Virus record (IMG/VR): IMGVR_UViG_3300028553_000005
Coordinates: 1-64,000 of that record
Source: an uncultured virus (IMG/VR IMGVR_UViG_3300028553_000005)
Taxonomy: Duplodnaviria > Heunggongvirae > Uroviricota > Caudoviricetes
Length of the DNA: 64,000 bases
Strand: one strand, 5' to 3'
Of this stretch, positions 6,593-42,545 are shown in pieces. A model generated the notes under the pieces. It was not told where the DNA came from and did not search any database. It saw only the letters and a program-made list of their open reading frames with translations. The position numbers and the translations under genes were made by a program. Every line of letters starts with the position of its first letter. Positions within the stretch are counted from its first letter, which is position 1.

Positions 6593-8384
6593 TTTTTTTC
6601 TTCTTTATAGTTACACCAGATAAAGCAAATTTATCTGCTGGAGTTACTAAAGGTTCTTTATTACTTGCGCCAGACATTGATCCGGCTAAACCCATATCAT
6701 TGGCTCCCGGATCATCTATTGCTTCTACATATTGTCTAAACTTCTTAAATTCTTTTTCTTCACGATAAGTTACATCGCCCATTCCTGACATAGGGTATAC
6801 TGTTCCCTGTTGGCGAGTGTCGAATTCTGGTCCTACACCTTGGGATCGAATAGCACCAGAGGCACTATTGACCCATCTTTTCTTTTTGTTTACTTGCTCT
6901 TTGTCTTTTTGGAAGTTTGGCTCTTTGGCTTGGGGCTGGACTTCGACCTTGGGCTGGCTTTCTTCGTAGGTGCGGAAGGTGTAACTTGAGTTACTTTGGA
7001 CGTCTCCGTCTTTAACGCTGTCGATTCGGCCGGCTTTTCGTTGGAGCTGGCAGCTGGGGCAGTTGTTGTCTGCGAGGAATCGGTGTTGTCCACATCCTTT
7101 GGTTTTAGCTTTAATAAATTGACTAGGGCTTTTAACATTTTTTTGTTCCTTATATAATGAATTAATATTTAATTTAGAGTTTCGAATCAACCAATCTTCG
7201 GCAGTTTCGTTAAAAGCCTTAGAATCCAAGAAGTTATTTGTTTTCTCATAAACTTCATGTATATCTTGCTCTTTACTATCTATATCTCCTGTATTATCAA
7301 AAGATACAAATCTATCAAAGGTCTCTATGAAATATTTAGTATTTTTTTGAGATTTCAACCATTTGTCTTGCCTAATCGATTCAACCATCATTCTAGCCAG
7401 TAAAAAGTTTCTTTCCCTACTGGTTTCATTGGTGGTATTGACAAAAACCATTAATGTATCGTAACCTAGTTCTTCCAGTTCTTCTTTGATATACGATATT
7501 CTGGTGGTGTCATCCGCTGGGCCATTGATTATTAATGGACCACGATTTCTAATTGCTTCATGGCGGTAATCACTTGTTTTTTCTGACAATTTTTGTTTAT
7601 CGGCCAAATATTCTTGAGCCTGTATGAAGTTTAATTCAACGATTCGAGATTCGGAGATAGCTTCACGGATAATGATATCTTTACCAGAACCTGGACCGCC
7701 AGTAACAAAAACAGCTTTAAACATACCACGATCAAACGATTCATGTAAACCCATACCCTTACGGGTATCGTGCATCAATTCTTTGGCATGAGAATCGGAT
7801 ACATGAGAAGGAACACCTTTCCTAAACTCACCAAAGTTCTTACTCTTGGCATGTTCTCTCATCTTCGTAGCTGACATACCCTCTGTACCTTCTGCGTCTG
7901 GATCACGGTGTCCTGCAGAATGGACAGTAATCTTTTTGAAATGGTATTTACCATGACCAGCCTCTACACCATTGTATTTGTGTAATAGGTGGTGCATTTC
8001 TTTGACACGGTCAGAACCAACAACAACATGAAGATGTGTAACTCCACTCTTATGTGCTTCGGCTGCATGGTGTAATATTGTTGGTTTCTCTTTTGAAGCT
8101 GCAACAAAATTGGTATTATCTGATTTCTTGGCTTCTGTTATAGGACCAGCAACATATCGCTTTAGATGTTTGATTTTTTGTTGAGCAGTTAGTGGATTCT
8201 TTTTGCTATCTTGTGTATGAGAAACAACAATGGTATGAGTTGCATTATTTTTCTTTGCAACCTCTTTAACTTTGTCAATTAGTTTTAAATGGCCAGCAGT
8301 AGGAGGGCTCATTCTACCAAAGGTAATAACATGGTGTTTTTCACCTTGTTGTTCTTCTTTGATTACGTCTAAAAATGATTTCAT
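6579..8384 (-). CDS. Cytidylyltransferase-like domain fused to P-loop kinase-like domain
   Basis: FGRMSPPTAGH (HxGH-type), VVGSDR and MSATKMR; second domain TGGPGSGKD. Start reassigned to MKSFLDVIKE. Confidence 0.8.
   Translation of the reverse strand: MKSFLDVIKEEQQGEKHHVITFGRMSPPTAGHLKLIDKVKEVAKKNNATHTIVVSHTQDSKKNPLTAQQKIKHLKRYVAGPITEAKKSDNTNFVAASKEKPTILHHAAEAHKSGVTHLHVVVGSDRVKEMHHLLHKYNGVEAGHGKYHFKKITVHSAGHRDPDAEGTEGMSATKMREHAKSKNFGEFRKGVPSHVSDSHAKELMHDTRKGMGLHESFDRGMFKAVFVTGGPGSGKDIIIREAISESRIVELNFIQAQEYLADKQKLSEKTSDYRHEAIRNRGPLIINGPADDTTRISYIKEELEELGYDTLMVFVNTTNETSRERNFLLARMMVESIRQDKWLKSQKNTKYFIETFDRFVSFDNTGDIDSKEQDIHEVYEKTNNFLDSKAFNETAEDWLIRNSKLNINSLYKEQKNVKSPSQFIKAKTKGCGQHRFLADNNCPSCQLQRKAGRIDSVKDGDVQSNSSYTFRTYEESQPKVEVQPQAKEPNFQKDKEQVNKKKRWVNSASGAIRSQGVGPEFDTRQQGTVYPMSGMGDVTYREEKEFKKFRQYVEAIDDPGANDMGLAGSMSGASNKEPLVTPADKFALSGVTIKKKKNVKI
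6890..7138 (-). CDS. Nested out-of-frame Lys/Ser/Thr/Pro-rich small protein
   Basis: 82 aa in an alternative frame; AAGGA SD 7-8 nt upstream of ATG; local GC shift coincides with the ORF. Confidence 0.55.
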   Translation of the reverse strand: MLKALVNLLKLKPKDVDNTDSSQTTTAPAASSNEKPAESTALKTETSKVTQVTPSAPTKKASPRSKSSPKPKSQTSKKTKSK

Positions 8385-8385
8385 C

Positions 8386-9531
8386 TTACTTTGCAAACCT
8401 AGGGTTATTTAAAATTGAATTAGACACTTTAACAGGAACAAGCTTTGTCATAGGTCTCATTTTACCTTCTTTATCTTTTTTCTGTAAAACAATACCTTCA
8501 CCTTGTGACTTTTTGCCATCTATACTTGTTTCCATATCAGGATGAGATACACCTTTTAATAAATGTTCTGTTGCTTGGCCTAAATGATGGCGTATATCTA
8601 AAGACCTTTGAAAGTGTTTAGCATTATCATCAACATGGCTTTTTAACTTATCAAACTCTGCTTGCTTTCTTACTTGACCAACAGGAGTCTTTAATTTGTT
8701 TACTGCTTTTTTTGCTTCACCATCTAAGTGTTTTTTATAACCTTCAATAGAGGCATTTTCACCTCTTCTTGTTGTTCTATTTAAGTATGTAGTAAAGTGT
8801 CCACCCTTCTTAACATTTATGTGTTCTGGTGTAAGATGTTCTGAAGTATGTTTCTTTAACAACTCTTTTGCTGCATCTAAATGTTTTTCTGTAGATTGTC
8901 TATCTTTTTCAGAATATGTTTCTGGATTTGCTTTATATTCATGTTCTGGCACAAAGACATTATTACTGTGTTTCAATGCATTCTTAGTAACACCATGTGC
9001 AACACCTTTTGTTATTTCTGTGTGGACTGCAAGACCTATTGGTGCTTTTGTTTTTGCTTTATATGTAATTCTATTAGGAGTTGTTTTTGTTACATCTCCA
9101 GATTTTTCTCCAGGAGAGTCCGGTGTGTGTAATAAATCTCCTTGAACATGGTGTCCTTTGTTAACAAACTCGTGACCATGTTTCAATAATCTTTTTAGTG
9201 ATGCTGCATATTCTGGTTGATGACCAAAATGTTGGTCTACTTCTTTTGGTGTCCTGGCAATAACACCTCTGGCTATTCTATGCTTATCGGATACACCAAC
9301 ACCGTCTTTATCATGTATAACATGAACAGAGGCACCACCATCAGTTTTTAACGAGGCACCAACAGAACTTTTTTGTCCCATTCTTTTTTTGTGAAATTGG
9401 TCTATTAAATCGATTGCAGTCTGTGCATGTTTTGGATCTTCATGGGGTAGGTCTTTAGTATGAGTAAGATGACCAAGCATCTCATCATCTACGGATGTAG
9501 CTTCCCTCAAGAATGTTAAAAATGACTGCAT
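8386..9531 (-). CDS. DUF6267-like protein with CTS-like N-terminus
   Basis: HLTH, KTDGGASV, QGDLL, PNRITY and EGIV motifs; start MQSFLTFLRE follows an AAGGA RBS. Confidence 0.65.
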   Translation of the reverse strand: MQSFLTFLREATSVDDEMLGHLTHTKDLPHEDPKHAQTAIDLIDQFHKKRMGQKSSVGASLKTDGGASVHVIHDKDGVGVSDKHRIARGVIARTPKEVDQHFGHQPEYAASLKRLLKHGHEFVNKGHHVQGDLLHTPDSPGEKSGDVTKTTPNRITYKAKTKAPIGLAVHTEITKGVAHGVTKNALKHSNNVFVPEHEYKANPETYSEKDRQSTEKHLDAAKELLKKHTSEHLTPEHINVKKGGHFTTYLNRTTRRGENASIEGYKKHLDGEAKKAVNKLKTPVGQVRKQAEFDKLKSHVDDNAKHFQRSLDIRHHLGQATEHLLKGVSHPDMETSIDGKKSQGEGIVLQKKDKEGKMRPMTKLVPVKVSNSILNNPRFAK

Positions 9532-9587
9532 TAATTTCCTTCTAGAACGCAACACACTATGGTTGCAAAATACGACTTCGGTTTGAT

Positions 9588-9595
9588 TATTTATA
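9588..9595 (-). promoter_or_regulatory. T4-type late promoter TATAAATA
   Basis: Exact consensus upstream of the internal-protein cluster. Confidence 0.75.
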
Positions 9596-9667
9596 CAACA
9601 TTTGACCTCCCATGGCCAAACCATAGAAAGATTGGGTTTGATACATAGTCATCAAAAATGTTGGATT

Positions 9668-10372
9668 TTACTGCCAGGAAGTACCTTCAAAATCACCCCA
9701 ATACGTTTTTAATTCTCCTTTACCCCTCAAGACATTGAATGGTAAGGTGTGTATTAAACCTCGACTGGAATAATAGTATATCAGTTTTTGTGGTGGTTTG
9801 TCAAGCGCCGATGCAAAAACGGCAGAACCCGTTTCGGCACCAATGAATATCTCGGACTCCATAATGTGGTAAATATTAGTCATAAAATCTGTACTATATT
9901 TCCAACCATCATAGGTTTGAGGTAATTCATTTTGAATGCATATCAACTTTTCATATTCAGCATACTCTGGTTTGTTATATTCATTGAGTATGTTTTCAAA
10001 TACTTGTTTTGGCCAATTTCTATATGTGTTATATGGAGCATCAAACAATGGAAAAACAACTATTTTTTTCCTCATTGTTTTGGTATTTTTAATTTCAGCA
10101 ATATCACCAGATATATCTCTAAAGTCCCAAAGATTTACTCTTTTCCATGGTAAAATATGTTGGCCAGGTTCCACAGAAAAATAATCCGTGTTATCACAAA
10201 GAAAACTAAACATATCTTGGCAATACTTAGCTGAGTTGATAGTACCACTCATCATATGAAACTTTGCTTCTGGATTTTCTTTTCGAATATATTCTAGTGC
10301 ATTAAGGAGTGCTATCATGTCACCATTTCTCAAAGGCCCACCAAAAGTATTTGGTGCAATATTAATGACCAT
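9668..10372 (-). CDS. Glycosyltransferase-like protein (GT-B-like)
   Basis: RNGDMIA, YRNWP and IFIGAETG resemble GT9-type motifs; last gene of the glycosylation cluster. Confidence 0.5.
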   Translation of the reverse strand: MVINIAPNTFGGPLRNGDMIALLNALEYIRKENPEAKFHMMSGTINSAKYCQDMFSFLCDNTDYFSVEPGQHILPWKRVNLWDFRDISGDIAEIKNTKTMRKKIVVFPLFDAPYNTYRNWPKQVFENILNEYNKPEYAEYEKLICIQNELPQTYDGWKYSTDFMTNIYHIMESEIFIGAETGSAVFASALDKPPQKLIYYYSSRGLIHTLPFNVLRGKGELKTYWGDFEGTSWQ

Positions 10373-11114
10373 TTAATATTTCTTCCAATTTGTTTTGGTG
10401 TACCAGTTTCATTTTTCTATTCAAGTAATAATGCTTTTCGAAAATTGTATTAATATTTTTTCCATTGTCCCAAGAAATGTCATCACCATTTCTAAACTGT
10501 ATGTCCCAATCTTCTGCTTTCCAAACCACGTAACCATCTTTATTCAATAAATCGGTCAATACAGAAACTCCCGACAGACTTGTAATGATTGGTTTGGTAC
10601 TATTTTTGATGATATAAGCATTCGTTAATAGGTCATTATTATAATCAATGAATTCACAATCTTTCAAATGACTTAATGTGTGTGTAGCTCTACGGTCATC
10701 AATGTCACCTACAGACCAACGGTCACCAACATAATAAGTATCTTTTACAGCAATATCACACTCTGGTGTTTTTACTGTGAAATCATCATCGACTTCAAAA
10801 TTTAAATTGTAATTGTCCTTCATGAAATTTTCATATCGACAAGTTTCTATTGGTCGATTAGGATTACCTTTATCTTCACGAATTGGCCAACTACTCATGT
10901 GAGTAATATTACCATACACAAAAACTTCATTTGCAAAGTTAACATCAGAAAATATATCTTGATAAGATAAGAATTGCTTGATGCCTTTAAACTTGGACAT
11001 TTCTGGTCGTATAATTAAATCAATCTTTCCGTATGATTTATTGATACCAGATAATACTGGCATGCCATTTAGAAAGTCACCTAAGTTAGATGTTCCTGAT
11101 AGAAATATTTTCAT
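10362..11114 (-). CDS. Glycosyltransferase-like protein (GT9-like N-terminus)
   Basis: N-terminal NLGDFLNGMPVL resembles the heptosyltransferase LGD motif. Confidence 0.5.
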   Translation of the reverse strand: MKIFLSGTSNLGDFLNGMPVLSGINKSYGKIDLIIRPEMSKFKGIKQFLSYQDIFSDVNFANEVFVYGNITHMSSWPIREDKGNPNRPIETCRYENFMKDNYNLNFEVDDDFTVKTPECDIAVKDTYYVGDRWSVGDIDDRRATHTLSHLKDCEFIDYNNDLLTNAYIIKNSTKPIITSLSGVSVLTDLLNKDGYVVWKAEDWDIQFRNGDDISWDNGKNINTIFEKHYYLNRKMKLVHQNKLEEILNGH

Positions 11115-11899
11115 TCACTAAATTCCTTAAAAACGATGAACCAATCTGTATTAGAAACAGGATGTAATTCAAACAATTCCGGTTTCATCAGATAAGACAT
11201 CAACAATAATGTTTGGTCGTCATCAATTAAATTATTTTTTATAAGTTCATTAATACTATGGTGCACCATGGCTTCCAATTTTGGCCACATTTCTCGGCCT
11301 GCGACGATACAAGGACCAGTAATGTGTACGTCATTATTGGCAATAACGTCTTGGATGTATGTTCCTTCTGTCCATTCTTTAATGTTAAAGAAATGTATTT
11401 TATTCTTATCAAAAGAATATTTCCAGTTTTTAACACCATTCAATGTTGATTCACTTCTACAATAACCAAAATCTAGCCAAGCAATTAAATCGGTTTTGAT
11501 AAGATCCAAAGACCTACTAACAAAAGACGATTTTAAAGCATTAACGAGAACGTAGTCAGCATTCCAATATTCTGGATTTTTTACTTGCATGGGATTTATT
11601 TTACTTTGATATTCAATATTTTTTTGAACACTGGTAATTTCTTCTCTCAATTTTTTAAAGTTTTTTTGAAAATCAAGAGTTAATATTTGTGTTGGTCTAT
11701 CTTGCCTTAGATATTCTATTTCTTTTACCATATCTTTAGATGTGTATACGACCATGGGATTTTCTAATTTTGCTAGATGACTAAATCTTTGCAAATAAGT
11801 TTTGGTTGTTCGTTGTAAATAATGTGGCAATCCTTTGTCTGGCGTCCAATCACCACGACCAATATCAAAGAAAGCAGTTACGATTGTGATATCATTCAT
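11111..11899 (-). CDS. HtrL/YibB (WlaTC) family protein
   Basis: TIVTAFFDIGRGDW, AWLDFGY and DDDQTLL motifs. Confidence 0.8.
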   Translation of the reverse strand: MNDITIVTAFFDIGRGDWTPDKGLPHYLQRTTKTYLQRFSHLAKLENPMVVYTSKDMVKEIEYLRQDRPTQILTLDFQKNFKKLREEITSVQKNIEYQSKINPMQVKNPEYWNADYVLVNALKSSFVSRSLDLIKTDLIAWLDFGYCRSESTLNGVKNWKYSFDKNKIHFFNIKEWTEGTYIQDVIANNDVHITGPCIVAGREMWPKLEAMVHHSINELIKNNLIDDDQTLLLMSYLMKPELFELHPVSNTDWFIVFKEFSE

Positions 11900-18434: not shown

Positions 18435-19544
18435 TTACCTAATAATTTGAATGTCTTTACCTGAAGTCCATACTTCAAGTTCTGTTCGTAATCTACCCTC
18501 AGCTTTAAGGGTTTCATATCTATTTATAGCTTTACTCCGCCACCATTCGATTACATTTGATAGTTCATGTTTCTTGTAATTTTCACCAGGTAAAAGTTTG
18601 TCGGTCTTACAATTCATGTAATCAACAGTATTTTTAAATCCATAATCAGAAATATAATATCGTTTCTTTTCTGTCAACTTTTTGGCATTGTCAATCGTTA
18701 AAGAGAAAGCATCTCCTTCAGGTGTTCCTTTTAAAGCAGCTTTGGTGAGAGCAATAATCTTAGTGAATGTTCTGAGTTTTCTACTCGTTGTTGAAGTATC
18801 TCCACCCAATAAATCACCAGTAATATCCTCCACGTATTTTTTCAAATCAGTATATCTTTGGCCGTGCATCATTGGCACAATATCTGATTCTGTTAAGCCT
18901 TTAAAACGAATGTAAGGTTTCATGCCATCATATTGTGAAACCGATTTGGTACTTCCATATAAACTGGTAGTTTCAAACAAGCAGATATTCATATCGTATT
19001 TTTTATTACAGATTTCTCTTACGGTATGACTGGCACAAATGGCAGATAAAAGTTTACCGCCTAGATAATTAAAACCAAATGGTTGAGATGGTACAATTAC
19101 GAAACCCATAACACAAGCCGTATTGAACCGCTTGGCAGTATCTTCATTTTGAATCCAAACTTGTCCTAGGTAGTCATTACGAGGTTTCATATAGATTACT
19201 GGTGAACCCAAACGAATGAATCCTAGAATCTTTCCTGAGTTTCTTTCTTTGACTGCCAATTGAATATTCTTACCAACTGGTGCTTTATTGATGTGTGAAC
19301 TGGTAATGGCAAGTAAAGGTTCCCAAACATCGTTTGGTATTTCACACACTTCAATATCCATATCTTTTGGGTGCATTGTGAAATCGGAGAATAAATCATC
19401 TTCAATTGGAAATAAAGAAGATGGCATATCAGCCACATTCTTCAGTTTCTCATCACGCATGTATTCTTCGGTACTTCCAATGTTACTAAAGTAATCTTTA
19501 AATACACCAGCACAATGAAGTGCCTGATCCCTATTGATCATCAT
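18435..19544 (-). CDS. DUF4338 (DruA/Mom-like GNAT) family protein
   Basis: IVPSQPFGFNYLGGKLL...FETTSLYG...SQYDG...GLT; paralog of 40170-41435. Confidence 0.7.
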   Translation of the reverse strand: MMINRDQALHCAGVFKDYFSNIGSTEEYMRDEKLKNVADMPSSLFPIEDDLFSDFTMHPKDMDIEVCEIPNDVWEPLLAITSSHINKAPVGKNIQLAVKERNSGKILGFIRLGSPVIYMKPRNDYLGQVWIQNEDTAKRFNTACVMGFVIVPSQPFGFNYLGGKLLSAICASHTVREICNKKYDMNICLFETTSLYGSTKSVSQYDGMKPYIRFKGLTESDIVPMMHGQRYTDLKKYVEDITGDLLGGDTSTTSRKLRTFTKIIALTKAALKGTPEGDAFSLTIDNAKKLTEKKRYYISDYGFKNTVDYMNCKTDKLLPGENYKKHELSNVIEWWRSKAINRYETLKAEGRLRTELEVWTSGKDIQIIR

Positions 19545-28166: not shown

Positions 28167-28874
28167 ATGAACGAACTAATTTATGTCCTAGTAACAACTC
28201 ATCTAACAATCATCGCCGTAACTCTATATCTACACCGTAGTCAAACTCACTTATCGGTTACATTTCATCCAGCAGTAAATCATTTCTTTCGTTTTTGGTT
28301 GTGGATGACCACAGGTATGGTCACAAAACAATGGGTGGCTATTCACCGTAAGCATCACAGTATGACTGACCAAAAAGGTGATCCACATTCACCTCAATTA
28401 TTTGGTATATGGAAAGTTTTATTTGGCGGAGCTTTATTATATAACACAGCATCCAAGGATGAATTGATGGTTAATTCGTTTGGCAGAGGAACACCAGATG
28501 ATTGGTTAGAGAAAAACCTTTACAGCAAACATTCCCGTCTAGGAATTACTTTGTTATTGCTAATAAATTTACTTTGTTTTTCGTGGTGGGGATTATTAAC
28601 TTGGGGAATTCAAATGATATGGATTCCGTTTTGGGCTGCTGGTGTAGTCAATGGAATCGGCCACTATTGGGGGTATAGAAATGTCGAAACAAGAGAATCA
28701 TCTAGAAATGTTTTCCCTATTGGTCTTATTATTGGTGGCGAAGAGCTTCATAATAATCACCATGCTGATGCTGGTTCCGCCAAGCTTAGTAGGAAATGGT
28801 TTGAAATAGATGCAGGTTGGTTCTATATTAAACTATTAGAAAAATTCAGATTAGCCAAACTAAGCGTTAAATGA
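28167..28874 (+). CDS. Membrane fatty-acid (delta-9 type) desaturase
   Basis: His boxes HRSQTH, HRKHH and HNNHH; also DPHSP. Confidence 0.9.
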
Positions 28875-29183
28875 AGAACCACATCCACAAGTAGATTTAG
28901 CATTTGGATTAATAATTACAAATTGTGAATTAAACTTTTCCTCTTTATAGTCTAATGTTGCGCCTTGTAGATATTGAGATGATATCATATCAACAATTAC
29001 TTTGATACCTTCATTCTCAATGACAAAATCATCTTCTGCAACTTCCTCATCAAATGTAAATCCGTATTGATAACCAGAACATCCACCACCTTGCACAAAC
29101 ATTCGTAATGCACCATTTGGTAATTTTTCTTCTACCAATAAATCTCTTACTTTGTTTATTGCACTATCAGTGATTTGAATCAT
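28860..29183 (-). CDS. erpA: Fe-S cluster insertion protein (ErpA/IscA family)
   Basis: GGGCSG and [14 protein letters not shown]. Confidence 0.9.
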
Positions 29184-29487: not shown

Positions 29488-29562
29488 TGGTTGCGGGGGA
29501 AGGAATCGAACCTACGGCCCCTGGATTATGAGTCCAATGCTCTACCTCTGAGCTACCCCGCT
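29488..29562 (-). tRNA. tRNA-Met(CAU) with initiator-like acceptor stem
   Basis: AGCGGGG...CTCATAA...GGTTCGATTCC...CCCCGCAACCA; cloverleaf with encoded CCA. Confidence 0.85.
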
Positions 29563-31094: not shown

Positions 31095-31700
31095 ATGAAT
31101 AAAAATCTATATGATATCTTAGGCGTTTCTAAAAATGCAACATTTGAAGAAATTAAAGCCAAATATAAATCACTCGCTCAACAACATCATCCAGACAAAG
31201 GCGGCGATCCTGAAATATTCAAGGAAATAAAAAACGCCTATGAAGTTTTAAGTGATCCCGTTAACAGAAAAAAATACGACACCACCGGTCATTACGAATC
31301 TGGTACAAGTCTCCGTGATCAAGCTCTAGAACAACTTAGTCGGTTATTTTTCAATTTACTTCCAAACATTAATCCCGATCTTGATGATCTAATACTGATT
31401 ATGAAAAATGAAAGTAGGCGAGAAAAACTAAACATAAACAATAACATTAATACTTGTAATGGTTACATATTCAGATTAAAAAAAATAATCAAAAAAATTA
31501 AAAAGAAAAATGAGCAAGGTGAAAATATGTTAAAAATGTTTGCCGAAAATCAATTAAAGAACCATGAAAACGAATTACAAAATTTCATAAGACAAATTCA
31601 AATTGTTGATATTGTCATCGAAATGCTTGAAGATTATCAATATGGTGATGTTACAACTTTAATTGAAAATTTTATGAATCCTCCTAATGGTGCCCCTTGA
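31095..31700 (+). CDS. DnaJ-domain protein
   Basis: LYDILGVSKNA...HHPDKGG...AYEVLSD...YD J-domain with HPD; start set to MNKNLYD. Confidence 0.85.
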   Translation: MNKNLYDILGVSKNATFEEIKAKYKSLAQQHHPDKGGDPEIFKEIKNAYEVLSDPVNRKKYDTTGHYESGTSLRDQALEQLSRLFFNLLPNINPDLDDLILIMKNESRREKLNINNNINTCNGYIFRLKKIIKKIKKKNEQGENMLKMFAENQLKNHENELQNFIRQIQIVDIVIEMLEDYQYGDVTTLIENFMNPPNGAP

Positions 31701-31761
31701 TAGAATCGAACTAACAATTCAAGATTACAAATCTAGCGTTATACCATTTAACTAAAGGGGC
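31688..31761 (-). tRNA. tRNA-Thr(UGU)
   Basis: GCCCCTT/AAGGGGC acceptor, anticodon loop TTTGTAA, T loop TTCGATT, encoded CCA. Confidence 0.85.
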
Positions 31762-31925
31762 CGTGCAGCCAATTCGGTGATGCGTTTTTGAATCTTAGCT
31801 TTATCTTTTGGTCTACTAGATTTTTCTAACATATCATTAAGCTGTTTAAGATTTAATGGACCTAATCTTGGCTTGCCATTTTTAGTCAACATTGGATTTT
31901 TCTTTTTTGATTTTGAAACTGCCAT
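31752..31925 (-). CDS. Hypothetical 57-aa basic protein
   Basis: MAVSKSKKKNPMLTKNGKPRLGPLN...; AAGGA RBS; sits between two tRNA genes. Confidence 0.55.
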   Translation of the reverse strand: MAVSKSKKKNPMLTKNGKPRLGPLNLKQLNDMLEKSSRPKDKAKIQKRITELAARPL

Positions 31926-31945
31926 GATATAGTCCTTAAAGAATT

Positions 31946-32015
31946 TGGAGCGGTGGTCTAGATTCGCACTAGATGAGTAAGTTGGACACCTACTCTGGTT
32001 CTATACCCCGACCGC
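31946..32015 (-). tRNA. Non-canonical tRNA-Gly(UCC)-like RNA, 70 nt
   Basis: GCGGTCG...CCACCGC-T-CCA acceptor; 7-bp stem GAGTAGG/CTTACTC around loop TGTCCAA; T arm TCTAG-TGCGAAT-CTAGA; minimal D arm GGT-ATAGA-ACC. Confidence 0.75.
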
Positions 32016-32024
32016 ATATGTAAT

Positions 32025-32053
32025 ACTATAACATTATATAGTGTGATTGTCAA
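32025..32053 (-). promoter_or_regulatory. sigma70 promoter directly upstream of the tRNA-Gly-like RNA
   Basis: TTGACA-17 nt-TATAGT with extended -10 TG. Confidence 0.75.
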
Positions 32054-32570
32054 CACTTATTTGTGGTATATTTAACCATGCTATTGGTTCTGGTTTGAGT
32101 GGTGCATCCGGATTACGAACATCACTAAACACTTCCCATAATTTTTCTTTGATAGCAAATTTGGTAAACAATCCTGTGGATAACCCGTGTGCTTCTATTT
32201 CCCATGGCTCATCATAATAATCCATATTTTCGGTAATTCTTTGACCTCTCCATCGTGTACCATATTCATTGGTTTCGCCATACACATATTGTTTAACATG
32301 AACCATTTCGTGTGCTATAGTTTCCAATATATCATGTGAACCACATAAAGGATTTATTTCAATCTGAAACTCTCTAGGTTTATTGCTATCATTATAATCC
32401 AATACTTCTGCATATCCAAGAGCATCAAGTTTTGGATCAAACTTAATACGGACACTAATGTTTTCTATCATTTTAGGTGTCATCAGTTGTCCGGCATAAA
32501 AAATAGCCGCACGCTTAACAAAAGGTCGAAAGCGTTTCTTATCGGGACATCCGATTATACTGAGTTGCAT
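32034..32570 (-). CDS. Zincin-like metallopeptidase
   Basis: AHEMVHVKQY and PWEIEA; start set to MQLSII after AGGAG. Confidence 0.75.
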   Translation of the reverse strand: MQLSIIGCPDKKRFRPFVKRAAIFYAGQLMTPKMIENISVRIKFDPKLDALGYAEVLDYNDSNKPREFQIEINPLCGSHDILETIAHEMVHVKQYVYGETNEYGTRWRGQRITENMDYYDEPWEIEAHGLSTGLFTKFAIKEKLWEVFSDVRNPDAPLKPEPIAWLNIPQISVDNHTI

Positions 32571-32623
32571 TGAGGTTTCTCCTGTGAAAACCAACTAATA
32601 CTTCTCAAATATTTAGGTGATAT

Positions 32624-38556: not shown

Positions 38557-38916
38557 TTACTGCTTCGAATATATTGTATCATGTTCATACAGAAACATCA
38601 AGCAGCACATTGCGTGTGCCAAGTGATGTTTACCAGATTCAGGATCACTAATCTCTCCTTCTTTCCAAGCCCACAGGTGCCGTTGCATGGCATCAAAATA
38701 CCTACGTTTAGAATCTGGTACATACTTCCAATTGTCTGGTTCATACTTTTCTGCACCAAACGTAAGGATTTCAACTGTTGCTTTTAAAGCTGCTGGCGGT
38801 AATAACCCGTATTGTAATTTACCACCATCAAATTTACGGCCCCCGGTGGTTGCATTTTGTGAAGCCTTAACCTCATCTGCAATTTTATAACCAAAAGGAC
38901 CATTCACATCACTCAT
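38557..38916 (-). CDS. dATP/dGTP diphosphohydrolase-like protein (DUF5664)
   Basis: KFDGGKLQYGLLP, FGAEKY..DNW, AMQRH and DPESGKHHLAHA; start set to MSDVNG. Confidence 0.8.
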   Translation of the reverse strand: MSDVNGPFGYKIADEVKASQNATTGGRKFDGGKLQYGLLPPAALKATVEILTFGAEKYEPDNWKYVPDSKRRYFDAMQRHLWAWKEGEISDPESGKHHLAHAMCCLMFLYEHDTIYSKQ

Positions 38917-39734
38917 TACATTTCTCCAACAAAATTGGCCACAGCTGGCATATCTCCTTGGAAATGATACGTACCAATATGAGATGTTCTCATCCAAGGA
39001 CACAAATGAATTTTACCACCAATCTTACGCCACATTTGGCAAAACATATAATCTTCACTTAGATATCGCTCAGAACCACCGCCAACAATACTATCTTTTG
39101 TGTCAATAACCGTATCAAAGAAAGCATGAATGTAGCGAGTGCCATCAAAGTGTTGTTGACCAACATGGTCTGGTTTATAACGAATCATTGGATATGCTTC
39201 TTCCATCTTTTTAAAAACATCACGTTTAATCATCATAAATCCTGTACCAATCTCCAATACTTCTAATGGTTCAGTAACATTAAATTGTGCTGTACCTTTG
39301 ACTGGATTGAAAACATAATCACCAGTAACTTTTTCTAAAATAGCAGGATCAATTTCAGGATTTTTTACAATAGCAGTCTTTACAGATTTCCACTTAATTG
39401 CTTTCTTGGGATAAGGACCACCAGAAACTTCATTGTCCATGGCCAATAAAGCAATCACATCTTGTGGATTAAAATGAATATCGGAATCAATAAACAACAT
39501 ATGTGTGCAATCAGAACGATGAATGAATTCGTCCACCAAATAGTTTCTGGCACGAGTGATTAATGATTCGTTGAAAAGAAATGAAAATTTAATATTAATT
39601 CCGTATTGAACACACATTCCTTGTAAGTCTAAACAAGCTTTCATGTATAGTCCATGATTCATGCCACCATACATTGGTGTGGCTACGAATAGACTTTTCT
39701 TTTGTAAGTCCTCTTTTTTTATTGAAATTTCCAT
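38916..39734 (-). CDS. GT-A fold glycosyltransferase-like protein
   Basis: FVATPMYGG, ESLITRARN, FIDSDI, GTGFM and LSEDYMFC. Confidence 0.65.
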   Translation of the reverse strand: MEISIKKEDLQKKSLFVATPMYGGMNHGLYMKACLDLQGMCVQYGINIKFSFLFNESLITRARNYLVDEFIHRSDCTHMLFIDSDIHFNPQDVIALLAMDNEVSGGPYPKKAIKWKSVKTAIVKNPEIDPAILEKVTGDYVFNPVKGTAQFNVTEPLEVLEIGTGFMMIKRDVFKKMEEAYPMIRYKPDHVGQQHFDGTRYIHAFFDTVIDTKDSIVGGGSERYLSEDYMFCQMWRKIGGKIHLCPWMRTSHIGTYHFQGDMPAVANFVGEM

Positions 39735-40169: not shown

Positions 40170-41435
40170 TTATCTGCCAACTTGTGGCAAATACTTTGCC
40201 TTGGTTTCTTCCCAAGTTAAATAAATCAAATCATCATAGAAAAGTGTTTCATATGAAACATTGTTTTTCTTTTGTAGTTGCCGAATACGACCTTTGGCAT
40301 ACTTTGTTTTCCAGATGTTTGTTAACGCTTCTTCACTGGTATCAAACGACTTTACCAGTTTATCTTCTGTAATTTCTTTTCGTAAAAATTCACAAGTGTT
40401 ATTATAGAGATAACTAAAATATATACCACGTTGGTGTTCTGTTCTAGTTTTGTCTTTTGATATACCAAGTTTTGGATAAGCAAAATGTAATGAACGATTT
40501 TTGTGATCTCGTTTGAGTGGCAATCCTTGTGGATTCTTTGCTTCCCACCATTCAAAATATTTGCGAGTATGGTTTTCTTTTATCCAATCAAAAATCAACT
40601 GTTTGGTTTGTTTTGTTGGTTCAAAGGCAACAGAGCCAGAGGAGAATCCCATAGAATTCCAATGCTCGAGGCCGTCATATTGAGAAAGACCACCCGCTTT
40701 AGTTTTTCCATATAATGAAGTGGTTGTAACTCCTACCAAAACATCACCATATCTTTCTTTCCAATCATTTTGAACTTTGTCAGATAAACATAATAATGCG
40801 AGTAATTTACCACCCATGTAATTATATCCAAGAGGTTGTAGTGGTACAATTGTTGAACCTATTGCTGTGTGGTTAATCATACTCTGTGATGTTTTCACAT
40901 CTCTGGACCAGCCAATTGCTTTATCTCTAGGAGTTAAATCTAAAAAGTCTGATGAGATACAGATAACACCAAGATACTTATTCGTTTTTTTATCTTTAAC
41001 AATGTAATATAAATTTCTTCCAATATTAGAATTGTTTTTCATTGTAGAAGAAAATGTTCTTATAGCATTCCATTCATCAACACGATTAGTATTAGCCAGA
41101 TACATTTGAGGTTCTAGGTTTTGAAAATCATCCACATCTTTAGGAACCCAAATATTGTTTTTTACTTTGTTTATAATAGCTGCTTGTGCATCATCTTCCC
41201 AAGAAATATCTGGATCACCAAACATATTCACACTAGCTTTGCCTGGATATCTTTCTTTTACTTCACACCATTTTTGATATAAAGTATATTCACGAACATC
41301 CATTTGAGAGGCATATTCTAAATCTTGAGTAACAGTTTTTGTTAACTGTTCTTTATCAATATGCCGAATCTGGTCCGATGGATTTTTTTCTGTCCACCTT
41401 TTCCATTGTGTTTCTACGGGTTCTACTCTTGCCAT
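40170..41435 (-). CDS. DUF4338 (DruA/Mom-like GNAT) family protein
   Basis: IVPLQPLGYNYMGGKLL...DWKERYG...TTTSLYG...SQYDG; LTPRDKAIGW; RGIY. Confidence 0.75.
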   Translation of the reverse strand: MARVEPVETQWKRWTEKNPSDQIRHIDKEQLTKTVTQDLEYASQMDVREYTLYQKWCEVKERYPGKASVNMFGDPDISWEDDAQAAIINKVKNNIWVPKDVDDFQNLEPQMYLANTNRVDEWNAIRTFSSTMKNNSNIGRNLYYIVKDKKTNKYLGVICISSDFLDLTPRDKAIGWSRDVKTSQSMINHTAIGSTIVPLQPLGYNYMGGKLLALLCLSDKVQNDWKERYGDVLVGVTTTSLYGKTKAGGLSQYDGLEHWNSMGFSSGSVAFEPTKQTKQLIFDWIKENHTRKYFEWWEAKNPQGLPLKRDHKNRSLHFAYPKLGISKDKTRTEHQRGIYFSYLYNNTCEFLRKEITEDKLVKSFDTSEEALTNIWKTKYAKGRIRQLQKKNNVSYETLFYDDLIYLTWEETKAKYLPQVGR

Positions 41436-42007
41436 TATTTGAGTTTCAACTTTCTCATGATTTTATTTCTTTTATTCATACCTGACTGTAAAGCCATTGG
41501 CTTTGTATGACTAGTATACACGATACCATTCATGTGGTCAAGCTCATGTTGAAAACAACGAGCAGATATGCCATCAAATTTTGCCTGTTTTATTTCTCCA
41601 TGATAATTCTGGTATTCAACCATAATTTCTTTTGGTCTGGTAATCCTTAAACCTAAAAAAGGAAAAGATAAACAACCTTCTATCATGTGAACTTCTTCTT
41701 CGGTTTTTGCCGTTATCTTAGGATTAAAATATGCCACATATTCATCTCCGGCACCCATTACAAATACACGATATGAAAATCCACATTGATTTGCTGACAG
41801 TCCAATACCACGATGAAGTTTACAGGTTTCGGCTAAAGACTCCACAAATTCTTCTGGATTAACGGGAGGATTTTTAAAATCAAATTGTGGTAATACCTGT
41901 TTTAAAATTGGATCGTTTTCATTTACCAATTTAAAATATTTCGATTGTTGTTTTTTTACTTCAACTTTGGAAGCTACTTCTGTATCATACTTAAAAATTT
42001 CACTCAT
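41435..42007 (-). CDS. def: Peptide deformylase
   Basis: GIGLSANQ, EGCLS and QHELDH. Confidence 0.93.
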   Translation of the reverse strand: MSEIFKYDTEVASKVEVKKQQSKYFKLVNENDPILKQVLPQFDFKNPPVNPEEFVESLAETCKLHRGIGLSANQCGFSYRVFVMGAGDEYVAYFNPKITAKTEEEVHMIEGCLSFPFLGLRITRPKEIMVEYQNYHGEIKQAKFDGISARCFQHELDHMNGIVYTSHTKPMALQSGMNKRNKIMRKLKLK

Positions 42008-42545
42008 TTATTTTCTCCTGCAATTCATCAAATACACCCATAGAAAGGTCAAAACCTATTAAAGCCTCATCGACCAAATCTAAGCTCAATTTTGAATCAA
42101 TTGCTTTGATTAATCCTGGTCGATCTTCAAATTGATATGCTTTACCAGAACCAGGAACTCGTTTAGCAATTGCTTTACCCCCATATAAATCACCCATATG
42201 ACGAACATACACATGAGCAAAGATATCTTTTTTCTTATCCAAATAATATAAATCAATTATCCTTTGTCTATATTTTTCTGTTGCTGATAACGTAGGTTCG
42301 AATGTTGTATGGCCAAGTTCATACAAATCTTCGTAAATATAATCTTTTCTTTTTATGTCCTTTAAATCAAGTAATAATAAAGACATTTCTGCAAAATATT
42401 CTATTGCACCATATATAACCGACATCTGTTTTAAATACAAAGCATAATGTTCTGGTGTAATATTACCATGTAATAGGTACTGAACAAATGGTTTTGCTTC
42501 TGCTTCTCTATGTTTAGCGTTTGTATAATCTCTTAATATACTCAT
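42000..42545 (-). CDS. Heme oxygenase
   Basis: T..KHREAE proximal His and AHVYVRHMGDLYGG. Confidence 0.88.
   Translation of the reverse strand: MSILRDYTNAKHREAEAKPFVQYLLHGNITPEHYALYLKQMSVIYGAIEYFAEMSLLLLDLKDIKRKDYIYEDLYELGHTTFEPTLSATEKYRQRIIDLYYLDKKKDIFAHVYVRHMGDLYGGKAIAKRVPGSGKAYQFEDRPGLIKAIDSKLSLDLVDEALIGFDLSMGVFDELQEKINE

Follow-up and report, generated by a model that had tools for sequence, protein, structure and literature searches.

A family of small tRNA-Gly-like RNAs in uncultured aquatic T4-like phages with a conserved glycine identity set and altered decoding features

Background

A 64,000-nucleotide stretch of DNA from an uncultured virus of the Caudoviricetes (positions 1 to 64,000 of IMG/VR record IMGVR_UViG_3300028553_000005; "the window" means this whole stretch) carries on its minus strand a 70-nt element that has the two ends of a transfer RNA (tRNA) for glycine and little of what a tRNA uses in decoding. 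What kind of RNA gene is this, if it is one, and what could such a molecule do? A sequence-only reading had proposed a non-canonical, apparently non-proteinogenic tRNA-Gly(UCC) with its own promoter, which would be a dedicated glycine donor for a tRNA-dependent transferase, or a decoy, and not a decayed tRNA. Here we describe the element as one member of an RNA family that occurs in at least 119 viral contigs, from uncultured T4-like phages of aquatic origin, with four structural types of 65-70 nt. Its helices are maintained by compensatory changes, it keeps the bacterial glycyl-tRNA synthetase (GlyRS) identity set, and a role in decoding appears unlikely.

The relevant precedent is staphylococcal. 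According to the account in PMC7826273, non-proteogenic tRNAs have so far been detected only in staphylococci. The tRNA-Gly genes of this kind described there have TGC or TGT instead of TTC in the T loop, and their products are charged normally and bind EF-Tu and the ribosome poorly. The same account gives G1-C72, the C2 pair, U73, C35 and C36 as determinants of glycylation.

Results

The element lies, as the sequence-only reading had quoted it, at 32015..31946, 9 nt past a TTGACA-17-TATAGT promoter:

31946..32015, minus strand: 70-nt tRNA-Gly-like RNA gene of type A (sequence, fold, covariation, match to covariance model R1)
32025..32053, minus strand: sigma-70-type promoter TTGACA-17-TATAGT, with TG before the -10 box (promoter scan 11/12)

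It begins with G1-C72, C2-G71 and G3-C70 and ends in U73 and an encoded CCA; the latter is no special mark of the element, since all three canonical tRNAs of the window encode it as well. The minimum free energy (MFE) fold of the 70 nt is a cloverleaf (-25.5 kcal/mol, z = -3.2), and 0/200 shuffles were as good. In this fold the acceptor stem has 7 bp (5 + 2) with C6 bulged, the D arm is a 3-bp hairpin with loop AUAGA, and the anticodon-like stem has 8 bp and the loop GUCCA, or 7 bp and the 7-nt loop UGUCCAA when U28-A34 is left open. The variable region is a single unpaired A, and a 5-bp T stem with loop UGCGAAU leads to U73-CCA at the 3' end. Fold and covariation together indicate that part of the canonical layout is kept, namely the 7-bp acceptor stem, the 5-bp T stem with its 7-nt loop, and the discriminator base followed by CCA. 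A 32-aa open reading frame (ORF) overlapping the element at 31958-32056 was taken as spurious.

Viral contigs were scanned with the pattern GCGG-N6-7-ATAG-N40-48-CWCCGCTCCA, which returned at least 119 stretches. Joined with the known loci these gave 82 distinct sequences, from which 7 chance-looking ones were set aside to leave an alignment of 75 rows (A2). Covariation was measured on gap-free, type-specific alignments drawn from these rows, 34 for type B (A3) and 20 for type A (A4); the 21 rows outside these counts comprise twelve of a 68-nt subtype, two shifted 67-nt sequences and seven divergent ones. Model R1 is a type-B covariance model. It matches the window element from end to end (31.2 bits, E 1.4e-5) and misses type D. 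The four structural types are:

Type A (the window's), 70 nt: loop UGUCCAA in 31/31 contexts; the T loop is UGCGAAU in 25 and UGCAAAU in 6 of them
Type B, 67-68 nt: acceptor stem of 6 bp plus one mismatch, D hairpin of 3 bp with loop AUAG, 9-bp stem
Type C, 70 nt: loci L472-L474, in other T4-like phages, between gp45 and gp44 and at a distance from tRNAs
Type D, 65-67 nt: D arm missing, loop GUCCA and T loop UGAGAAU; 15 stretches, 10 distinct sequences

Read as seven nucleotides, the type-B loops are AUACCCU (31), ACACCCU (12), AUUCCCU (11) and rarer forms, with the T loops AGCAAAG, AGCAUAG or UGCAAAG. The same architecture is recovered by MFE in two of the three type-C members (L474 and L472, loops GACCU and GUCCU), the third (L473, loop UUCCA) folding otherwise. 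Type D was first found by a regular expression in two complete relatives that R1 had missed (G003 and G005). A single contig can hold both type A and type B (L203, L214, L197), and divergent pairs occur in L193 and L134; types sharing a contig are paralogues, not alleles. The family pattern also matched at least 121 stretches in cellular genome contigs. These were taken as chance matches, since the best R1 score among the 80 stretches scored was 19.6 bits, compared with 23-95 bits for real members.

Covariation across related phages, the check on which the claim against a decayed tRNA depended, is seen in types A, B and D. Among the 20 distinct type-A sequences 99.6% of cells are paired, and 5 of 23 pairs changed on both sides (29 cells); 0/500 shuffles did as well for cells and for score, but 107/500 did for the number of pairs. 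The signal is broader in type B, where the 34 distinct sequences have 99.3% of cells paired and 12/22 pairs changed on both sides (75 cells), with 0/500 shuffles as high on all five measures and slid controls only 34-57% paired. For type D, calculated on 8 of the 10 distinct sequences with the two 67-nt ones left out, the values are 97.5% of cells and 10/20 pairs. Furthermore, the 70 nt recur unchanged in 20/104 loci (some contigs counted twice), including L021-L024, in which the protein of the flanking ORF is only 67% identical; this conservation makes the element more than a chance resemblance. A functionless tRNA-Gly pseudogene in decay would account for the apparent derivation from tRNA-Gly and for the failure of tRNA scanners to call the element. 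Against it stand the identity of the 70 nt beside a diverging protein, the compensatory changes in all three types, the absence of pseudogene-like drift, a conserved promoter, and the retention of the element where more than 20 canonical tRNAs have been lost, and we give this explanation practically no chance. By its pattern of substitutions, the element is under selection as a structured RNA and is no tRNA in decay.

The glycine identity set had been read from the single element and holds throughout the family. Every member inspected keeps G1-C72, C2-G71, G3-C70, U73-CCA and the loop CC (C35/C36), which covers the window element and 104 contexts. Pairs 1-4 and U73 (GCGG, CCGCTCCA) were set by the search pattern, so that rows obtained with it say nothing independent about these letters; the pattern left the loop CC, G55 and the helices free, and their conservation is informative. 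The loop reads NNCC(C/A) in 64/64 type-B contexts, and GACCU, GUCCU or UUCCA in type C. Two sets of members were obtained by other means. All four found by the model alone (L031, L197:148-215, L193:376-444 and L134:429-497) keep pairs 1-3, U73, CCA and CC, and in one of them pair 4 has changed from G-C to A-U, a compensatory change. The type-D pattern left the 5' end free, and the identity set is present in 10/10 distinct type-D sequences.

The closest canonical relative appears to be the tRNA-Gly(UCC) of these phages themselves. The only canonical tRNA to reach E <= 1 with R1 in 434 kb was one tRNA-Gly(UCC), at 27.7 bits. A tRNA lies no more than 10 nt downstream of the element in 26/104 distinct contexts, and all 26 are tRNA-Gly (25 UCC, 1 GCC), while type-D copies stand 5-8 nt behind a tRNA in 11/15 stretches, tRNA-Gly (UCC/GCC) in 9 and tRNA-Thr in 2. 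The canonical tRNA-Gly(UCC) of the clade (L025:3134-3207) and the element both begin with GCGG and end with CCGCUCCA, they are 1-8 nt apart in many contigs, and their loops differ by one base, UUUCCAA in the tRNA and UGUCCAA in type A (U33 to G). One copy has a canonical GCGGGA/UCCCGC acceptor stem. The two differ in that the tRNA scores 68.6 bits with the Rfam tRNA model, against no match for the element at E <= 10, and in that the D arm, anticodon stem, variable region and T loop of the element are all remodelled. The frequent spacing of 1-8 nt suggests origin by duplication, and tandem duplication of a phage tRNA-Gly(UCC) followed by remodelling would be the simplest history.

These data also bear on the decoy that the sequence-only reading had named as its second option. 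A molecule mimicking the acceptor end of tRNA-Gly, and perhaps its charged state, could soak up a host defence enzyme or factor and so protect the translating pool, its target being for example a toxSAS enzyme that adds pyrophosphate to the CCA end or an acetylating GNAT toxin directed at Gly-tRNA-Gly. Acceptor pairs 1-4 and U73-CCA are indeed the most conserved part of the element, the lost decoding features fit a molecule barred from translation, tRNA-Gly and tRNA-Thr are its commonest neighbours, and the contig keeps its tRNA-Thr. [quoted passage not shown] A pure acceptor-stem mimic, however, needs neither an invariant CC in the distal loop nor a loop-to-CCA distance that is kept in all four types; at 5-68 these RNAs have U-A or A-U and not the purine-pyrimidine pair favoured by FaRel2, and no such defence is known for the host. 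We consider a decoy role doubtful.

The canonical decoding set is not retained. Position 8 of the element is G, its D hairpin has 3 bp and its anticodon-like stem 8 bp, position 33 is G, the T loop has U54-G55-C56, and the D loop AUAGA has a single G and no GG. Most of the list of lost features given by the sequence-only reading therefore stands (T loop, D-loop GG, 3-bp D stem, G33, no U8, short variable region); its 7-bp anticodon stem applies only with U28-A34 open, the MFE stem being 8 bp. G33 occurs in 31/31 type-A copies and C37 in nearly all type-B copies, in which pairs 32-38 and 31-39 covary and close the loop to 5 nt. G55 replaces U55 in all four types (UGC, AGC, GGC, UGA), and U8 and G18 are absent. 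Types with a D-loop G have C56, and type D, with no D arm, has A56, which may reflect loss of a contact at the elbow like that of G19 with C56. The likeness to the staphylococcal tRNAs that lack GTΨC and the D-loop GG was borne out for the window element, with its T-loop UGC and its D loop devoid of GG.

Could it nevertheless be an odd but working decoder of GGN codons, in the manner of truncated organelle tRNAs? An NCC anticodon is available in every loop, U33 is present in many type-B members when seven nucleotides are read (AUACCCU, AUUCCCU), the stack of D and anticodon stems (3 + 8-9 bp) is near the canonical length of 4 + 1 + 5, and the element is the only Gly-type tRNA of the contig, which is estimated to be 82% complete. 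On the other side, even close relatives differ at position 34, which can be U, A, C or G, the Rfam tRNA model finds no match, and a decoder would be redundant, as copies commonly adjoin a canonical tRNA-Gly(UCC) and types A and B co-occur. Because of G33 or C37, the universal G55, the absence of U8 and G18, the covarying pairs 32-38 and 31-39, and the copies beside intact tRNA-Gly genes, we judge a decoding role unlikely.

Standard tools miss the element, as had been anticipated. ARAGORN called only two tRNA-Met and one tRNA-Thr in the window, and Rfam gave no tRNA match for the element at the gathering score, nor at E <= 10 in a search of the 271 nt around it; type B and a pair of such RNAs in a sister clade (G012) likewise had no match at E <= 10. 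No family of Rfam 15 covers the element. Among 50,697 GenBank phage records no match was obtained by megablast of 601 nt, by blastn of promoter plus element or by blastn of a type-B copy, and R1 found nothing in Melnitz-3 or Cr30. Full-text literature searches returned no description of such a phage RNA.

The promoter has TTGACA at 32053-32048, a 17-nt spacer and TATAGT at 32030-32025, followed by 9 nt to the element. G1 is thus 10 nt past the -10 hexamer, and the predicted 5' leader would be only a few nucleotides. The site ranks second of 30 promoter-like sites in 6 kb (11/12), but 30 sites are no excess over the 30.8 found in shuffles, so that the match by itself proves little. Conservation adds to it: TTGAC-N16-18-TAnnnT-N6-10 lies directly upstream in 27/31 type-A and 40/64 type-B contexts under this strict regular expression. 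It was found in 0/9 divergent contexts, although L193 and L134 have TTGACA-type promoters 12 nt upstream that the expression missed. A promoter of its own, as the element had been credited with, is consequently typical of types A and B and not universal, type-D copies lying 5-8 nt behind other tRNAs in arrays. Metatranscriptome contigs from four runs of four studies span 31917-32216, 31917-32183 or 31808-32004, with no difference within the element and differences in the flanks; DNA carry-over is possible. They record the presence of the sequence in RNA libraries only and are no proof of a discrete RNA, and gaps in their coverage carry no information.

The element stands first on the transcript led by its promoter and has other tRNAs 1-8 nt away, an arrangement seen in dimeric tRNA precursors. 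This could also point to a module for RNA processing or stability, which, as a 5' cap or punctuation in the shape of a tRNA, would recruit RNase P and 3' trimming enzymes to shape or stabilise a transcript bearing tRNAs and small ORFs further down, or to a regulator that titrates GlyRS. The downstream neighbour varies (tRNA-Gly, a small ORF or tRNA-Thr), as would suit such a module. Acceptor and T arms would suffice for it, however, and it would require neither a conserved CC in the loop nor U73 nor covariation in an arm of 8-9 bp. Type C and the G012 pair are found at a distance from any tRNA, and the type-D copies are embedded in arrays whose canonical tRNAs provide processing signals of their own. 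We regard this explanation as very unlikely.

The window is part of a 136,428-bp single-contig virus record with a GC content of 32-38%. The phage is T4-like (gp23, gp20, gp18, gp43, gp44/62, gp45, RegA, UvsX/Y/W and others), the DNA runs containing the stretch are lake-water metagenomes, and the nearest named phages by the flanking ORF, Caulobacter phage Cr30 and Methylophilales phage Melnitz, are only about 33% identical. The contig holds tRNA-Met, tRNA-Met, tRNA-Thr and the element only, although further tRNAs may lie in the missing part of this 82%-complete genome; four complete or near-complete relatives have 24-28 tRNAs each, including Gly UCC and GCC. The immediate neighbours of the element are:

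32034..32594, minus strand: 186-aa ORF upstream of the element, with an HEMVH motif (Pfam SprT-like, E 0.0023, below cut-off)
31752..31925, minus strand: 57-aa lysine-rich ORF, 20 nt downstream of the element (ORF list)
31688..31761, minus strand: canonical tRNA-Thr(UGU), the next tRNA downstream (ARAGORN; Rfam tRNA 65.5 bits)

The 186-aa ORF has its stop codon inside the promoter spacer and matches PHROGs families of unknown function. Its relatives occur in 579/600 pattern-matching stretches, hence in at least 579 viral contigs, and the covariance model found the element behind it in 31/80 loci. Judged by gene order, it is a synteny anchor of the locus and implies no functional link to the element. 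The 57-aa ORF, with no Pfam or PHROGs match, is probably on the element's transcript. Its slot is often occupied by a canonical tRNA-Gly in relatives, and a cis-regulatory role of the element on this ORF was ruled out by the variable downstream neighbour.

Several observations on the rest of the genome were made in passing. The tRNA-Met at 29488-29562 (minus strand) has A1 opposite A72, unpaired, which recalls the 1-72 mismatch of bacterial initiator tRNAs. Outside the window, at 130764-131131 of the contig's own numbering (minus strand; L224:1304-1644), the phage encodes a permuted, two-piece transfer-messenger RNA (tmRNA) with the ARAGORN tag ANDNMYALAA and Rfam scores of 99.4 bits for beta_tmRNA and 119.4 bits for tmRNA_permuted; this suggests a betaproteobacterial host that itself has a two-piece tmRNA. 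A 148-aa protein beside gp45 (38557-39003, minus strand) has a dATP/dGTP diphosphohydrolase N-terminal domain (PF18909, E 9.4e-34), and no PurZ-like gene turned up in Pfam scans. Host-like auxiliary genes lie around the tRNA region, at 41435-42545 (minus strand) and 28167-29183, and comprise peptide deformylase, heme oxygenase, fatty-acid desaturase, an IscA/ErpA-type Fe-S protein, Hsp20 and, on the opposite strand, a DnaJ-domain ORF. A block at about 67-87 kb of the contig (L225, L226), again outside the window, has five large proteins with RCC1-repeat, TIG and He_PIG domains, together with a sulfotransferase, UDP-galactopyranose mutase, glycosyltransferases and an APS-kinase-like gene, and resembles a block for fibres and glycan modification.

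If the RNA were a glycine donor, an enzyme using the glycine would be expected. The proteins that might be considered for this role in the window are two of the DruA type, DruA being familiar from Druantia, a bacterial defence system to which it belongs:

40170..41435, minus strand: 421-aa DruA-type (DUF4338) GNAT-fold protein, a speculative client (Pfam DruA)
18435..19544, minus strand: 369-aa paralogue of this protein (Pfam DruA, E 1.9e-8)

DUF4338/DruA is a GNAT domain, as stated in PMC10853773, and the two proteins share 35% identity over 142 aa by BLASTP (E 1e-25). The predicted structure of the 421-aa protein has a predicted local distance difference test score (pLDDT) of 93.3, all its fold matches are GNATs, and the top-ranked solved structure in both Foldseek and VIA is Mu Mom (PDB 8bv8), which according to PMC13219725 transfers glycine from Gly-tRNA-Gly to N6 of adenine in double-stranded DNA. 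Searches of the PDB with the DruA-type protein, as single sequence or profile, gave 0 matches, and a related-locus search with P0171 and P0135, aimed at the contexts of distant DruA-type homologues, found nothing. The larger protein is 75-93% identical across most relatives compared. The element lies 6.6-9.5 kb downstream of its gene in 20 of the 31 loci with at least 9.5 kb of downstream sequence, and 12.6-15.9 kb from it in 3 further loci. Two such RNAs start 55-60 nt past the DruA-type stop codon in the sister clade, where the protein is 63% identical (G012, G013), on contigs that lack canonical tRNAs. Past the RNA pair of G012 (L470) come a 796-aa protein that matches no Pfam family and an AAA_5 ATPase of the MoxR/CbbQ type (7835-10225 and 10343-11602). 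Comparison of the gene content of this genome and G007 with that of G001, G003 and G005 gave four small specific ORFs, none transferase-like; the comparison lost its meaning because G003 and G005 carry type D. Neither FemAB (PF02388) nor the Mom family (PF25680) matched at E <= 1 in the 136-kb contig.

Discussion

The interpretation from which we started, a selected RNA with glycine identity, lost decoding marks and a promoter, is partly supported by these results. We propose that the element would be a small stable RNA, derived from a duplicated phage tRNA-Gly(UCC) and remodelled into a glycine acceptor that does not decode; of the readings considered we favour this one, while giving it an even chance of being wrong. 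The RNA would be transcribed early from its own promoter, or inside tRNA arrays in type D, and trimmed by host tRNA-processing enzymes. The host alpha2-beta2 GlyRS would recognise it through both ends of the L shape and glycylate it. Its binding to EF-Tu and the ribosome should be poor because of G33 or C37, G55, the anticodon stem of 8-9 bp and the absence of G18 and U8, and a pool of activated glycine could thereby be held beyond the drain of translation. More speculatively, this pool might feed an off-ribosome aminoacyl transferase, for which a Mom-like, DruA-type GNAT is the leading candidate. Further findings count for the glycine-acceptor reading: the phage has kept the element while losing decoders (Met, Met and Thr remaining, compared with 24-28 tRNAs in relatives), and G55 in all four types, matching the staphylococcal TGC/TGT, suggests convergence with the known case.

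Several observations weigh against this proposal. Some of the contigs from RNA libraries run upstream across the promoter, and neither promoter-driven transcription nor RNA ends are visible in them. Any base at position 34 yields a glycine anticodon (NCC), and the stems, taken together, have lengths that come close to preserving the L shape, which leaves decoding some probability. Recognition by GlyRS might also suffer from a 5-nt loop with a Watson-Crick closing pair. Furthermore, no Fem, L/F-transferase, MprF, cyclodipeptide-synthase or Mom family is found among the 156 ORFs (at least 70 aa) of the 136-kb contig. The link to Mom does not extend to sequence, the DruA-type profile reaching a probability of 0.8% against Mu Mom by hhalign. 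The DruA-type gene is, moreover, a core gene of the clade, in 592/601 stretches in viral contigs; G001, a complete genome of 170 kb, has it with no element found, and a 17.9-kb contig with type C covers the syntenic gp46-gp45-gp44 region without a DruA-type gene. The more specific proposal that the element is a dedicated, EF-Tu-evading glycine donor for a Mom-like, DruA-type GNAT, which would modify phage DNA or another target, is put forward tentatively, and we think it probably does not hold.

Off-ribosome tRNAs are known from one bacterial lineage, the staphylococci, and the family described here would be a much more radical viral version, an RNA of 65-70 nt that keeps only what the glycine-charging enzyme reads and is conserved in several clades of abundant lake phages and in some marine-like phages. 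If charged, it would be a minimal natural substrate of bacterial GlyRS and a natural example of an aminoacyl pool set apart from translation, and it would point to a further glycine-consuming step in phage infection. A tie to a Mom-like GNAT would connect it with DNA hypermodification and with the DruA component of Druantia. Should DruA be its client, aquatic T4-like phages would carry a two-part tRNA-dependent modification system with a private carrier RNA, and by extension the DruA of Druantia would be an aminoacyl-tRNA-dependent transferase. Whatever their role, these genes escape phage genome annotation, to which they could be added by means of a covariance model.

Truncated or D-armless mitochondrial tRNAs, which decode on specialised ribosomes, resemble the element in their reduced D arm, in a longer anticodon stem that compensates for it and in a preserved stack of acceptor and T stems. 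Among bacterial and phage tRNAs, PMC5389517 describes 8/4 and 9/3 forms for Ser, His, Cys and Sec, with none for glycine and none with the architecture of the element. Phages also retain tRNA variants for purposes unrelated to codon supply, namely against tRNA-targeting defences, as in the PARIS and retron cases cited in 10.1101/2024.07.05.602228; as presented there, these are working decoders with small changes that let them escape a nuclease, whereas the element has lost its decoding features altogether. Mu Mom shares with our proposal the use by a phage of glycyl-tRNA outside translation, and the window phage has two GNAT-fold DruA-type proteins. Mom, however, as portrayed in PMC13219725, draws on the tRNA-Gly isoacceptors of the host and has no RNA reserved for it, the DruA-type protein falls outside the Mom family by sequence, and no DNA modification is known for the window phage. 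The nearest parallel is with NP1-NP3 of S. aureus and S. epidermidis, as described in PMC7826273, which have in common with the element the glycine identity set, a UCC-type loop, G55, the lack of a D-loop GG and an existence alongside normal tRNA-Gly; by analogy, the element would be expected to be charged and to escape EF-Tu and the ribosome. The staphylococcal tRNAs are full-size cloverleafs of one bacterial lineage that serve FmhB, FemA and FemB in cell-wall synthesis. The RNAs described here are phage-encoded, with 65-70 nt, an anticodon stem of 8-9 bp, a D hairpin of 3 bp or none and a variable region of 1 nt; no Fem-type enzyme was found in the 82%-complete contig, and the family would have arisen independently, from a phage tRNA-Gly.

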